Positions 7,606-11,920 of a stretch of 64,000 bases of DNA are shown here, in pieces. The number at the start of each line of letters is the position of its first letter. Position 1 is the stretch's first letter. Source of the stretch: Desulfococcus sp. 4484_241 (GTDB taxonomy: Bacteria > Desulfobacterota > Desulfobacteria > Desulfobacterales > Desulfosudaceae). The notes beneath the pieces are model-generated. The model had not been told where the DNA came from. It did not search any database and saw only the letters and a list, made by a program, of their open reading frames with translations. The position numbers and the translations under genes are program-made. The DNA lies in the NCBI GenBank assembly GCA_002085115.1, contig MZGQ01000005.1:1818-65817 (forward strand), given 5' to 3'.

Positions 7606-8423
7606 TTAAAAATCGTTCCATTCAGTGACCGGTTCAAGAGGCACCTGCGGATATATCTGGCCGTGGGCAGGGGGCATGGAGTTGTAGACCCAGTTAATAT
7701 CAATGCTTCCGGTCTTTATGCCGCGCACCCGGCAAAACCGGTTGAACCTTCCCCTTACCATAACGTTTTCCATCTTCATGGTGATCCCGAACACAGCCAC
7801 TGTCTCTCCTTCAGGCACCTGGCAAAGCTCGTCTCCGTAGGCCAGGGTGGAAAATACCAGCCTTCCGGAAACCCGTTGTCTTTTATATATGCAAGAAATT
7901 TCAGCGAACCTAACATGTTTAACAACTTTTCCCCAAAGGGGGTCAGGGCCCGGCCATGCTCTTTGGACGCAGATTTTCCCCTGGCAAAACGGGTCATCAG
8001 GGTTGAGAGAATGATTCCGGCAAGGGGCAGGTTCTCCGGCCCGCGGGCATCGATGAGGTCCAGGTAGTGAACCGTGTTGATACCAAAGTAAGCGTTGTAC
8101 CTAAACATGGGCAGGTCGTTGTAGGATTCATATTCAGGCCCGTCCATACGTAAATGGGTCCATCTGGCATGTCCGCGCCACATCCTCCGGTCCATGGTCA
8201 GCACCAGAAAGGCGATGTTTGGATTTTTCTGTATATTGCTCTTGCTGCTGCCCTTGCAGAACTCTCCCAGGGTGACCTGTTTCGGGCCGTTGGCCCGGAT
8301 GGAGGTGAGCAGGGTTATATGCGGCAGTCCTTCCGGAGTGATGGAAGCCACCAGCCCGATCTTTTCCGCAGGAGAAAACGCCTCCATTGCCTGCTTGTCA
8401 AACTCCTTTAAATCATATCCCAT
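7606..8423 (-). pseudogene. Tandem pyridoxamine-5'-phosphate-oxidase-like (FMN-binding split-barrel) protein, interrupted by a 1-nt frameshift near 7845-7875
   Basis: ORF 7776..8456 has an ATG at 8423 preceded by AGGAGG. It is coherent up to ...KFLAYIKDNGFPEG, then degenerates. The adjacent frame (ORF 7606..7818, open further upstream) reads LVFSTLAYGDELCQVPEGETVAVFGITMKMENVMVRGRFNRF... This second half mirrors the first domain: ITPEGLPHITLLTSI compares with IKDNGFPEG-LVFSTL, and AFLVLTMDRRMWRGHARW with AVFGITMKMENVMVRGRF. Confidence 0.6.
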
Positions 8424-9390
8424 CTTCCGCCTCCTGTTGTATATTTTCTGTTTCAAGCCGGGTGGAGCCGGACCAGTTGACGATCTCAGGGTTTACCCCG
8501 GATTTTCTGGCCACATCCGCCATCTCCTCCATGAACTGCCTGGATAGCAATTCGCTGTCATGGAACATCCATTTACGGCCCAGGCGCAGATACTTGTCCC
8601 GGCACAGGTTGTTGAATGCACACAGTTCCCACCGGGAAACCACTTGGGAAAGGTTTTTGGCAATAAATCGACCAATCCCGTTTATATTCTCCTGTGTGGC
8701 AGTGGCCCCGGGGATCACCGGGGTTCTGATCCAAAGTTCACGCGGGTAAACATGGGATGCGATATAATCTGCCACAAAACGCAGGTTATCAATAATCCGT
8801 TTGTTGGAATGCCCGGTAAACCGCCGGTGTGTTTCTGCATCCATCAGCTTCATGTCAAACATGACCAGCACGGCATAGGGGAGTATCTTTTCCAGCGCCT
8901 CTTTTCCGCATTGACCGCAGGTGTCCAGGGCCGTGTGAAGCCCCTTGCCCCGGAGCGCCTTTAAAAAAGCCCCGGCAAATTCAAACTGCATGGTCGGTTC
9001 GCCCCCTGATATGGTGACCCCGCCGCCGGATGTTTCAAAATAGGCCCGATCCTTGACGACTTCGTTCACCAGGGCTTCAAGGTCCCAGGTTTTTCCTAAA
9101 ATTTCCAGGGCCGTGCCAGGGCATTCAGCCGCACAAGCGGTACAGACATTGCAAAGAGAGCGGTCGATCTGTATTCCCTGTTCGGTCATGGACAGGGCGT
9201 TTTTCGGACAAACCGACAGGCAGGTTTTGCACCCGATACACCTGTTGCCGACCCAGCAAAGCTGAGGCCTGGGGGATATGCTTTCCGGGTTGTGGCACCA
9301 GGCGCATTCCAGGGTGCACCCTTTAAAGAACACCGTGGTTCGTATGCCGGGCCCGTCCTCGGTGGACATCCGCACGATCTCAAGGCGGCA
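8413..9390 (-). CDS. Glycyl-radical-enzyme activating enzyme (radical SAM with two extra ferredoxin-like clusters), encoded as the in-frame C-terminal part of the GRE reading frame
   Basis: [35 protein letters not shown] (CX3CX2C), then [12 protein letters not shown] and [12 protein letters not shown], then [10 protein letters not shown]. There is no stop codon between this part and the GRE glycine-radical domain. An internal ATG lies at 9369. Confidence 0.85.
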   Translation of the reverse strand, partial: [325 protein letters not shown]

Positions 9391-11920
9391 GTGGGATACT
9401 CTGGCAATCACCTCGTTTTGCAGCTCCTTGCCGATTGCCGTGAAATAGGCATTATAACCGGTTATCCGCACCAGAAGGTTCCTGTAGTTTTGCGGATGAT
9501 GCTGCGCATCAATCAGCATGTCGGCATCCAGCATGTTTATCTGCAGGCAGGTGCCACCGTTTTTCCCGTAACCGCGCAGGAACGCCTTGAACTTGTCCTT
9601 GTGTTCCGGGTCCTTTATGATTGACGGGTTGAAGGTGATGGTGTGCGAGGCACCGTTTGGCAGGTTGTTTAAGTAATCTTCCCAGTCACCGTTGCCATCC
9701 TTTGCCTTGCCACCCAGGGCCTTGCCAACGGAATTGGCGTTTGCCGTGGGGCCGTTGGTGTCTGCTCCGTTGGACGGACAGATGGCGTTTGACAGGAATT
9801 GCCCTTTTTTTCGTCCATCGGCACTGGCCGCCATGATAAACCCGTCGCCGGCCCAATAGTTCCAGCTAAGCATTCCGGGCCGGAACTGACGGCCAGTGGA
9901 CCGGGTTTTATACTTCCAGGTCTCTTCGGTCCACAGTTCCATCACCCTGTACGCCATTTCGTCGGCTGCATCGTCATCCCGTCCATACTTGGGCGCCTTG
10001 TTTTTTGCCAAAGCCTGGAGCACCTCGTACCCCTCCCAGTTGGCCCTGAGTGCTTCTATGAGCTGCGCCATGGTACACTTCTTTTCGTCAAACACGAGGT
10101 ACTTGATGGCAAGCAGGGAATCCACGGTTGTGGCAAACGTGACCCCCTCCAGGGTTGTAAAGCTGATCTCGGCGCCGCCCTGGGTGATATCCAGACCCTT
10201 TTCCGCACATCCCTTTACCAGGCATGACAAATAAGGGGTTGGCAGGAATCTTGCCCGAACCGACTCGGACATTTCGTACAGGTCAACGCATTTTTTAACT
10301 ATGTATCTTGTCTGGGTTGCGTAGGCTTCCCAGAACCGGTCCCAGGAGGTAAATTTTGTCGCATCCCCGGTATTTGGTCCGTCCTGGCGGATCTTTTCGG
10401 CCTTGCCGGTCAGGGGGTCCACGAACGGGACCAGGTCCCTGCCTCCGGTGAGTGCCAGTTCAACGGCTTTGAGCAGGTTGAGGTTGTTGTCCACCGTACC
10501 GGACCGGTCGTTGCCCACCATGGTGTTCTCCAGGCATCCGACCGGCGCATACTCATGCACGTTATCCTTGTTTATAAGATGGGTGATACCGGCCTTGCGC
10601 GCTTCTCTCAGCATGCCGGCCATGGACCGTTCATCAAAGTCCAGCAGGAAAGGAGCGCCCTGGCTGCCTGAGATCATATCTATCAGCCTGTCCAAAAGCT
10701 TATCCGGGGAGTTCCTGTGCAGCCGGACGTTTGGTTTTGGTTCGAGTATGGGGCTCATCTCGTCTATCACTTCAAGGATGGCATGGGTCAGGTCATTGGT
10801 CAGGTCGATCCCGCCCTTGCCCATGCCGGACAGGGTGATGAGCTGGCCGAACCCTGATGTGATCCCCTGGTTGCCGTTTCTGATCATTGAATCGTAAGCG
10901 GTATTGCAATGGATCCAGAAACATTTCAGGATCTCCTTTCCAAAATCCCGGTCCATCCCGTTTTTCAGCGAAGACTCCCAGTAGGGATACAGGTACTGGT
11001 CGATGCGGCCAAAAGACACGCCAGGGCCCGGATAGCCCTCGTCGCTCATGATAAGCATGTGATTGATCCAGAGTGCCTGGACCGCCTCCCAAAAGGTTTG
11101 TGGCGGATTCCAGGGAACCCGTTCCAGGTTGGCTGCCATCTGTTTCAGCTCGGCCTTTCTGTCGGAGTCGGTCTCCTTTGCCGCCAGCTCCTTGCAAACC
11201 TTTGCATATCCTGACGCCCTTGCAAACCTTTGCATATCCTGACGCCAACTCACGCGGCATACCGGCCGCTGTCATCATTGCCCGGAGCTGTGCGCCCCTG
11301 GGCCCCTGGCGGTCGTTGGGCGGCAATCCCCGGTACATTGCCTCAAGCTCCTGGCAGATCCCCTTCCAGCCGATGGAAAGCACTCTCTCATGGCCGGGTA
11401 TGATGTGACCGCACGTGGCGCCGCTGTTGCCGTATCCATGGTTATGGAACCGGATTACCGCGGCTCGGGCCCCGTTTTTTCCAGTGGTAAGAGCGTCAAA
11501 CTCCTTTTGTTCCTTTTCGGTAAGACACATGGAGGCAACGATGTTGAACCGGCCGCCGGCGATCAGGTCGCCCGGCAATATCTCCTTTGGCAGGTATTTT
11601 GTCATGACCTGTCGGACAAACCAGGCCCGCCGCTCCACCAGCGGCCACGACCAGAACTCGTCAGGCAGACTGACCGGCCTTGCAGCCTGCCGGTAGGAAC
11701 TGCGCATGGTCTGCATCAGCATGTAGGTTTCAGGGACGATGTAAAATGTCATCTCGTTAAACTGAACATCCCAGGGCGTGCCAGTGGTCCAGGCTGTGGT
11801 TTCGTTATTCCAGGCCCGCCGGGTTCCTTTGAAATAGTAATCCCGCAGCCTTGTGATGCGCCTGGAAAGTCCCTTTGGCTCCTTGATCTGATGTTGCTTT
11901 TTTTTTGCAGCCATATTCAT
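9391..11920 (-). pseudogene. PFL2/glycerol-dehydratase-family glycyl radical enzyme, frameshifted by a 28-bp tandem duplication at 11191-11246
   Basis: The N-terminal fragment (ORF 10793..11920) is meaningful only down to about 11247. The C-terminal fragment (ORF 8413..11253) carries the thiyl loop APVGCLENTM and the glycine-radical motif [11 protein letters not shown]. Removing one 28-bp copy joins ...ASGYAKVCK to ELAAKETDSDRK... in a single frame. Confidence 0.85.
11191..11246. repeat. Perfect 2 x 28-bp tandem duplication (CTTGCAAACCTTTGCATATCCTGACGCC)
   Basis: Copies at 11191-11218 and 11219-11246 are identical. The length is not divisible by 3. Confidence 0.95.

Follow-up and report, generated by a model that had tools for sequence, protein, structure and literature searches.

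The window analysed here, a stretch of 64,000 nucleotides, carries on its minus strand a small operon that encodes a glycyl-radical enzyme (GRE) and its radical-SAM activase (AE). The first gene of the operon (11938-12660) encodes a GntR/FadR-type regulator of 240 aa, counted from an ATG at 12660; it matches Pfam GntR and FCD/FadR_C and looks intact, and the listed ORF 11938-12723 begins at an upstream TTG. The same 240-aa regulator gene lies upstream of the GRE in the related loci L002, L004 and L005. The GRE is present in two parts, with codons 1-225, the N-terminal part (11246-11920, minus strand), in a separate frame (ORF 10793-11920) and the rest, which reaches Arg836 when the sequence is repaired, at 9385-11189. 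The AE, 323 codons plus a stop codon, occupies 8413-9384 on the same strand, followed by a PNPOx_N-like gene (7606-8423, minus strand). The latter encodes 285 aa in relatives and is split here into ORFs 7776-8456 and 7606-7818.

The two parts of the GRE are separated by a perfect 28-bp tandem duplication (GCGTCAGGATATGCAAAGGTTTGCAAGG x2; lesion 1, 11190-11245, minus strand), which shifts the GRE frame by +1. TRF described it as period 28, 2.0 copies and 100% match, and the corresponding LA.xYAKVCK.LA segment is single-copy in all relatives as opposed to duplicated in the window. Once the duplication is removed, the N-terminal part aligns to the N-termini of 837-aa relatives, and the resulting continuous sequence of 1159 aa aligns without gaps to intact relatives. 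Because the duplication shifts the frame, the first 225 GRE codons lie outside the fusion ORF, and the window holds no uninterrupted full-length GRE coding sequence.

Beyond this site, GRE and AE share one frame with no stop codon between them. This ORF (8413-11253, minus strand, 946 aa) contains PFL-like, Gly_radical, Radical_SAM/Fer4_12 and Fer4 Pfam domains, all in a single frame. The original prediction that the two proteins are joined without a stop was thus correct, but its claim of one continuous frame over 8413-11920 was not, as the tandem duplication interrupts that span. No Shine-Dalgarno-like sequence was seen upstream of the start of the 946-aa ORF in the sequence inspected there.

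The GRE portion is clearly recognizable, with Pfam matches to PF02901 PFL-like (3e-114; domain and C-terminal alignment define the 9385-11189 part) and PF01228 Gly_radical (1e-20). The glycyl-radical motif RITGY, of the RxxG[YF] form, lies at 9454-9468 (repaired residues 809-813), and the thiyl-Cys loop VGCLE at 10528-10542 (repaired residues 451-455) conforms to GCxE. The GCxE thiyl loop marks 1,2-eliminase-type GREs. The best PDB sequence matches were CutC, HypD and glycerol dehydratase, with E-values of about 1e-90 to 1e-82. The GRE nevertheless fell below the cut-off of TIGR01774 (397.5 bits vs 678.2) and of every NCBIfam equivalog compared (HypD, 368 vs 1100; HpsG, 357 vs 1000; CutC, 325 vs 1050). 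Judged by its sequence, it represents an uncharacterised branch of the PFL2/glycerol dehydratase type.

The AE scored above the cut-off of its family model (TIGR02494, PFLE_PFLC; 300 bits vs 174.35), contains Pfam Radical_SAM, Fer4_12 and Fer4_7 domains, and is 91% identical to a separate 337-aa activase (P0002). The motifs that had been predicted to follow the junction were all found in place by their coordinates: DGPGIR, CX3CX2C and two ferredoxin-like CX2CX2CX3CP clusters. The AE lacks its first 14 codons as well as a start codon and ribosome-binding site of its own, and its N-terminal strand (G-x-[IV]-[LF]-x-[IV]) is incomplete. The residues lost are a variable N-terminal extension and three residues of the first strand, whose G-x-[IV] start, conserved in relatives, is replaced by GRE tail residues in the window. 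On the GRE side, only the single last residue, Phe or Leu in relatives, is missing.

Alignment with the closest relative (L001; AE 91% identical in both amino acid and nucleotide sequence) revealed how this junction differs from a two-gene arrangement. L001 has a stop, a spacer and an ATG and reads CACTGCCG-GTTTTAAGCGCCGGGGAGTACCCGGAAGAAAATAGATGAATGAGACAATGATCGATAAAAAAAACAAAGGCATGAT-CCTGGAGATC, whereas the window reads CACTGCCG-CCTTGAGATC. The difference is a net deletion of 76 nt (lesion 2) with cleanly aligning flanks, and comprises the last GRE codon, its TAA stop, a 28-nt spacer with the ribosome-binding site, and AE codons 1-14 including the ATG. The fusion junction lies at 9379-9393 on the minus strand (CAC TGC CG/C CTT GAG, slash at the breakpoint), with the break between 9386 and 9385. 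It had been placed at 9388-9393, which is accurate to within a few bases; those positions are the His-Cys codons just upstream. After ...SH, the GREs of the relatives run on for two to five residues, most often three; the window junction leaves 11 residues from the helix-end His to DGPG. A deletion that takes out both the stop and the start codon would by chance join the two genes in frame in one of three cases.

We then compared 81 related loci, consisting of 79 loci of GTDB species representatives plus L001 and L002. None of the 81 is fused; every one keeps a stop after the GRE and a separate activase ORF. This comparison with orthologous loci, which had been proposed as a check, left the window as the only fused locus.

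A search of 5.8 billion proteins gave a similar picture, with 118 of the 120 best matches being stand-alone activases, most of 316-353 aa. The sole junction-spanning matches among these 120, P0001 and P0074, were rejected as fusions, as each has an out-of-frame stretch and other genes on their contigs are fragmented too. This fragmentation is compatible with 1-2-nt homopolymer errors. Out-of-frame stretches also disqualified P0122, P0123 and P0153 from a second search, and P0240. Three short proteins running from an AE fragment to a glycyl domain on contigs under 1 kb (P0121, P0126 and P0163) are probably assembly chimeras and were not considered further. An exact look-up of the 946-aa product returned no record, and the best match in a scan of GTDB genomes was just 81-84% identical. 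Metagenome contigs, scanned for the exact deletion junction and for the duplicated site in a degenerate, single-copy form, gave 0 matches in either case.

The original prediction had further described the activase as a separate polypeptide in every characterised GRE system. This is valid for the PFL-type systems that it listed, but calls for qualification. Fused NrdDG ORFs have been described in eukaryotes, in some fungi and oomycetes (PMC3019208), and the databases contain uncharacterised single-chain proteins that, like the window ORF, combine a GRE and a radical-SAM activase in one reading frame. These include a Desulfomonilia protein (HEY9161509.1, 1113 aa, AE then GRE), an Anaeramoeba flamelloides protein (KAJ3428281.1, 1136 aa, AE then GRE) and a partial Kipferlia bialata protein (GIQ83960.1, 954 aa, GRE then AE); apart from the Desulfomonilia protein, each was seen in one organism or assembly. 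Literature searches for natural PFL-type GRE-activase fusions turned up no cases other than PFL fusions made by engineering and the NrdDG of eukaryotes. The domain order of the three full-length single-chain examples is opposite to that in the window. In database fusions of the same order as the window, GRE to AE, the last GRE helix is followed by 21 (P0312), 36 (P0300) or 51 (P0333) residues before DGxG. Unlike these, the join in the window has no linker, is unique among the 81 relatives and lies in a frameshifted gene.

The operon was also predicted to carry two other lesions, and this was indeed the case. Besides the duplication in the GRE, the PNPOx-like gene has an out-of-frame deletion of 40 nt between 7863 and 7862 (lesion 3), which takes out the conserved (I/V)(I/V)PLLQCQAADSRR segment and whose flanks match L001 base for base. 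No microhomology was evident at the breakpoints of the 76-nt and 40-nt deletions with L001 as a proxy for the ancestor. A scan of 20 neighbouring ORFs gave Pfam matches for 16, mostly covering almost the full domain length, and none for the other 4; all 20 genes look intact. With lengths of up to 1277 aa, these long ORFs indicate that the assembly is not generally frameshifted.

Substitutions gave little sign of decay. Relative to L001, the AE had a dN/dS of 0.135 and the PNPOx-like gene one of 0.149, and window-specific changes at near-invariant columns numbered 1 of 250 in the GRE, 0 of 72 in the AE and 1 of 51 in the PNPOx-like protein. Derived amino-acid changes in the AE and PNPOx-like protein together amounted to 31 on the window branch vs 20 on the L001 branch, a difference that was not significant. 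Since the coding sequence is otherwise nearly undamaged, inactivation appears to have been recent, and the timing data are compatible with a short spell of neutral drift.

Taken together, the fusion is very probably a deletion scar private to this genome, in a recently inactivated operon. Because it was found in this genome alone and the operon has two other disabling lesions, it points to ordinary gene decay and not to a new enzyme design. The ancestor would have been a four-gene operon encoding a GntR/FadR regulator, an 837-aa PFL2-type GRE, a 337-aa activase and a 285-aa PNPOx-like protein. Three independent medium-sized indels would then have struck it: a gain of 28 bp in the GRE, a loss of 76 nt at the GRE/activase boundary and a loss of 40 nt in the downstream gene. 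The ancestral activase would have been read in frame +1 with respect to the GRE, and the loss of 76 nt would have happened to align the frames, leaving a linker-less ORF that resembles a GRE-activase fusion. As the frameshift lies upstream, the full-length fusion cannot be translated. The activase would be deprived of its own translation signals and of the start of its N-terminal strand, and a functional product is presumably absent. Of the two readings offered originally, an in-frame deletion of the stop, spacer and first activase codons agrees with the 76-nt gap against L001 and with the two-gene layout of 81 of 81 relatives, whereas a genuine new architecture finds no support in the relatives and is contradicted by the upstream frameshift that blocks full-length translation.

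Some observations sit less easily with a deletion scar. The mutation spectrum is somewhat unusual, with three indels between 28 and 76 nt in a stretch of 3.7 kb and very few substitutions alongside them, and the collections searched contained no independent second copy of the window sequence. One may suspect that the real operon is intact and that the indels stem from sequencing, assembly, polishing or a mixed population. The clustering of the lesions within otherwise pristine coding sequences and the lack of an independent copy of the junction in public metagenome contigs, or of the exact 946-aa product in any collection, would fit such an artefact, and poor long-read assemblies do contain pseudo-fusions of these two genes that arose by frameshift. 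This explanation is unlikely: long reads would be expected to yield homopolymer errors of 1-2 nt, not a perfect 28-bp duplication and clean deletions of 76 and 40 nt, the flanks of each lesion match the relative base for base, and the remaining 60 kb of the window has long uninterrupted genes, most with near-complete Pfam coverage.

Apart from the lesions, the catalytic motifs of both GRE and AE are fully conserved, which likewise sits less easily with a scar and raises the question of a functional covalent fusion whose activase domain installs the glycyl radical either within its own chain or on the other subunit of the GRE dimer. The loss is limited to the variable AE extension, three first-strand residues and one GRE residue, and single-chain AE/GRE proteins are known elsewhere (the 1113-aa Desulfomonilia protein and, from GRE to AE, the partial Kipferlia protein). 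We consider a functional fusion very improbable, as no relative is fused, the frame is broken upstream in the given sequence, the conserved third structural gene of the operon is irreversibly broken, the conserved G-x-[IV] of the AE first strand has been swapped for GRE tail residues, and 11 residues without a linker compare with at least 21 in same-order fusions; there is also no sign of selection for the junction. Perfect tandem duplications can revert via slippage, and reversion of this duplication alone would give a translatable 1159-aa fusion. The 28-bp repeat might accordingly act as a reversible slippage switch, with single-copy cells making a self- or partner-activating 1159-aa chain. 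If true, this would capture a functional GRE-to-AE fusion just after its origin, but we regard it as exceedingly improbable.

The window shares its domain set with the PFL-like barrel, GCxE and RxxG[YF] with the HypD/HypD-AE, CutC/CutD, HpsG/HpsH and B12-independent glycerol dehydratase pairs, and on the AE side DGPGIR, CX3CX2C and two ferredoxin-like clusters; its intact relatives have the same two-gene layout as PFL2/glycerol-dehydratase-type pairs. Unlike those pairs, the window family is accompanied by a GntR regulator and a conserved PNPOx-like protein of 285 aa, and in the window itself a deletion has joined the genes and the GRE carries a frameshift. The lesions resemble those of pseudogenes that arise by slipped-strand duplication or deletion, with ORFs fused where an intergenic region is lost: the frame-breaking indels are absent from orthologues, the stop, ribosome-binding site and start between neighbouring co-directional genes are gone, and there is little substitution decay so far. 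The three lesions, all missing from orthologues, in otherwise conserved sequence fit an ordinary young pseudogene operon. One point is unusual compared with typical pseudogenes, in that all three structural genes of a small operon were struck while the 20 scanned neighbours look intact.

As found, the locus has little significance beyond that of a young pseudogene operon whose fusion is a deletion by-product. It does call for caution, since several database 'fusions' of GRE and activase are frameshift artefacts: single ORFs of this kind in genomes or MAGs should be checked against relatives and for nearby lesions before a new architecture is claimed. A functional fusion would bear on how the activase gains access to the buried glycine loop, a question better approached with the 1113-aa Desulfomonilia activase-GRE protein, which recurs in at least 5 assemblies and, at one inspected locus, is surrounded by apparently intact genes.

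The ORF at 8413-11253 on the minus strand encodes 946 aa in which Pfam placed, all in one frame, domains of four types: a PFL-like domain (residues 13-465), a Gly_radical domain (residues 489-605), Radical_SAM/Fer4_12 (residues 633-851) and a ferredoxin-type domain (residues 670-712). The motifs of the glycyl-radical enzyme (GRE) and its radical-SAM activase (AE) quoted in the original prediction were found in the sequence, together with two CX2CX2CX3CP motifs. The predicted junction at 9388-9393 was right to a few bases, and the DNA there reads ...GTA TCC CAC TGC CGC CTT GAG ATC GTG CGG ATG TCC ACC GAG GAC GGG CCC GGC ATA CGA... 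The claim of one frame held for 8413-11253 but not for 8413-11920, where the 28-mer GCGTCAGGATATGCAAAGGTTTGCAAGG is perfectly duplicated in tandem at 11190-11245, which parts GRE codons 1-225 (ORF 10793-11920) from the remaining gene. Deletion of one 28-bp copy in silico gave a continuous sequence of 1159 aa that aligned without gaps to intact relatives. The sole other sizeable tandem repeat of the window is an intergenic 26-nt unit at 45449-45504 (2.2 copies, 96% match).

Base-level alignment with L001, the locus of the closest relative, revealed how the two genes were joined. L001 reads CACTGCCG GTTTTAAGCGCC...GGCATGAT CCTGGAGATCGTG, whereas the window reads CACTGCCG CCTTGAGATCGTG, a net loss of 76 nt. 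The lost segment comprises the last GRE codon and its TAA stop, a spacer with a GGGGAG/GGAAG ribosome-binding site, and the ATG plus codons 2-14 of the activase. Because the activase frame in L001 is +1 relative to the GRE and the loss is 1 mod 3, both now share one frame. In the protein alignment, the N-terminus of the closest activase, P0002, differs from the GRE-tail join at the same place; the G-x-[IV] at the start of the first AE strand, kept in relatives, is occupied in the window by the GRE tail residues H-C-R.

The relatives keep two genes. When a 282-aa junction-centred query was searched against 5.8 billion proteins, 118 of the best 120 matches were stand-alone activases, most of 316-353 aa, the closest being P0002 (91% identity over the activase part), whose contig is L001. 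The operon in L001 and three further loci (L002, L004 and L005) runs from a GntR/FadR regulator through an 837-aa GRE, a 24-29-nt spacer and a 337-aa activase to an overlapping 284-285-aa PNPOx_N-like gene. A GTDB scan with one genome per species yielded 80 loci (56-81% identity) from Desulfobacterales, Spirochaetota, Chloroflexota and Bacillota. In all 79 that contained both genes, the GRE ran on past ...SH by two to five residues (usually three) before its stop codon, with the activase as an ORF of its own. With L001 and L002 included, 81 of 81 loci were unfused.

The conserved operon lies at 7606-12660 in the window, 788-5931 in L002 and 5966-11103 in L004, and consists of a GntR/FadR regulator, an 837-aa PFL2-type GRE, an activase and, as its fourth member, a weakly PNPOx_N-like protein of 285 aa. 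This arrangement occurs in Desulfobacterales, Spirochaetota, Chloroflexota/Dehalococcoidia and Bacillota, and the 285-aa partner looks obligate for the GRE family. The partner gave a weak Pfam match to PNPOx_N and no match in NCBIfam or among PDB sequences. The repaired GRE (one copy of the duplication removed) carries both the GCxE thiyl loop and the glycyl motif; it scored below every NCBIfam equivalog cut-off and also below that of TIGR01774, and among solved structures CutC, HypD and glycerol dehydratase are its best matches. This is an uncharacterised family of PFL2-type GREs, probably 1,2-eliminases to judge from the motif.

The original prediction had weighed a genuine fusion against a deletion scar in a decaying operon, and the scar was borne out: the 76-nt deletion is private to the window genome and is accompanied by the frameshifting duplication and a frameshifting deletion in the same operon. 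In the downstream PNPOx-like gene, 40 nt are absent between 7863 and 7862 relative to L001, which removes the conserved (I/V)(I/V)PLLQCQAADSRR segment and leaves the gene in two ORFs (7776-8456 and 7606-7818). All three structural genes thus carry indels (+28, -76 and -40 nt); the 240-aa regulator appears intact. The main residual uncertainty is whether the lesions exist in the organism or in the assembly alone. The 20 flanking ORFs scanned appear unbroken, so the assembly is not generally frameshifted. Sixteen of these match Pfam, most over near the whole domain length, and four have no match; they include RNase II, a permease-Usp protein, a 1277-aa NHL/TPR protein, POR subunits, HemN-like, SelA and HemC. 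The fused frame is real and its meaning ordinary: two operon genes were joined by a deletion confined to this genome. A functional GRE-AE fusion in the window is very unlikely. The full-length fusion is out of frame, and the 946-aa product would be without 225 residues at the N-terminus of the GRE barrel. Its ORF starts with GTG, upstream of which no Shine-Dalgarno-like sequence was seen by eye, and the activase no longer has a start codon or ribosome-binding site of its own.

Relative to L001, the activase has a dN/dS of 0.135 and the PNPOx-like gene one of 0.149 (dS ~0.3). Changes unique to the window lineage fell on 1 of 250 (GRE), 0 of 72 (AE) and 1 of 51 (PNPOx-like) near-invariant columns, taken from alignments of 79, 79 and 54 sequences, and several intact relatives had more. 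Outgroup polarisation assigned 31 derived replacements to the window branch vs 20 to the L001 branch, a mild, non-significant excess. As read from the sequences, these patterns indicate that purifying selection acted on the operon until recently.

Other apparent fusions were rejected. Six GRE-to-AE products (P0001, P0074, P0122, P0123, P0153 and P0240) each contain out-of-frame stretches, and P0001 and P0074 are artefacts, because genes on their contigs, which were inspected, are fragmented. P0001, P0074 and P0122 come from Chloroflexota-like relatives in long-read MAG assemblies (L086, 3034-6269; L087, 3970-5993). There, gene calls join the GRE C-terminus to the activase by a frameshift in the last GRE helix (P0001 at ...IGK|RAAGRDHCPR..., P0122 a few codons later), and the activase frame is open upstream across the GRE 3' end. 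Such calls are recurrent artefacts that can be mistaken for fusions. P0121, P0126 and P0163 are short predicted proteins on 758-913-bp ENA contigs, in which the N-terminal part of an activase, up to and including CX3CX2C, is joined directly to a C-terminal glycyl-radical domain of a GRE; assembly chimeras or large-deletion variants probably account for them.

The 129-aa junction was searched exhaustively with phmmer against 1.84 billion representatives, and Pfam and cluster look-ups followed. Single chains turned up with either domain first. AE precedes GRE in P0326 (HEY9161509.1; 1113 aa; Radical_SAM + PFL-like + Gly_radical) from a Desulfomonilia MAG, P0264 (1095 aa; three contigs of Logan assemblies) and P0318 (KAJ3428281.1; 1136 aa) from the eukaryote Anaeramoeba flamelloides. 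Five or more independent assemblies contain the protein at the P0326 length, and the single locus that was inspected (L088, 4001-7342, on a 115-kb Logan SRR2059973 contig) shows it as one gene among apparently intact neighbours. These three look like genuine, uncharacterised AE-GRE fusions and are better suited than the window to questions about how an activase functions when tethered; the literature searched held no biochemical study of a PFL-type GRE-AE fusion. The reverse order occurs in P0333 (GIQ83960.1; 954 aa, partial) from the eukaryote Kipferlia bialata, P0300 (626 aa, partial; JGI metagenome) and P0312 (388 aa, Gly_radical domain then AE; ENA metagenome). These chains, at least one of them eukaryotic, recall the NrdDG ORFs fused in fungi and oomycetes, reported after bacterium-to-eukaryote transfer (PMC3019208). 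The fusion architecture as such therefore has precedent. From where the last GRE helix ends to the DGxG motif, the linkers of P0333, P0300 and P0312 leave 51, 36 and 21 residues, in contrast to 11 in the window.

Elsewhere in the window, 19111-32453 holds a cofactor gene run of an anaerobe, all apparently intact: two radical-SAM proteins, 2-oxoacid:ferredoxin oxidoreductase subunits, a HemN-like protein, a B12-binding radical-SAM protein, a protein with an NirD/L-like siroheme-decarboxylase regulator domain, SelA and HemC.
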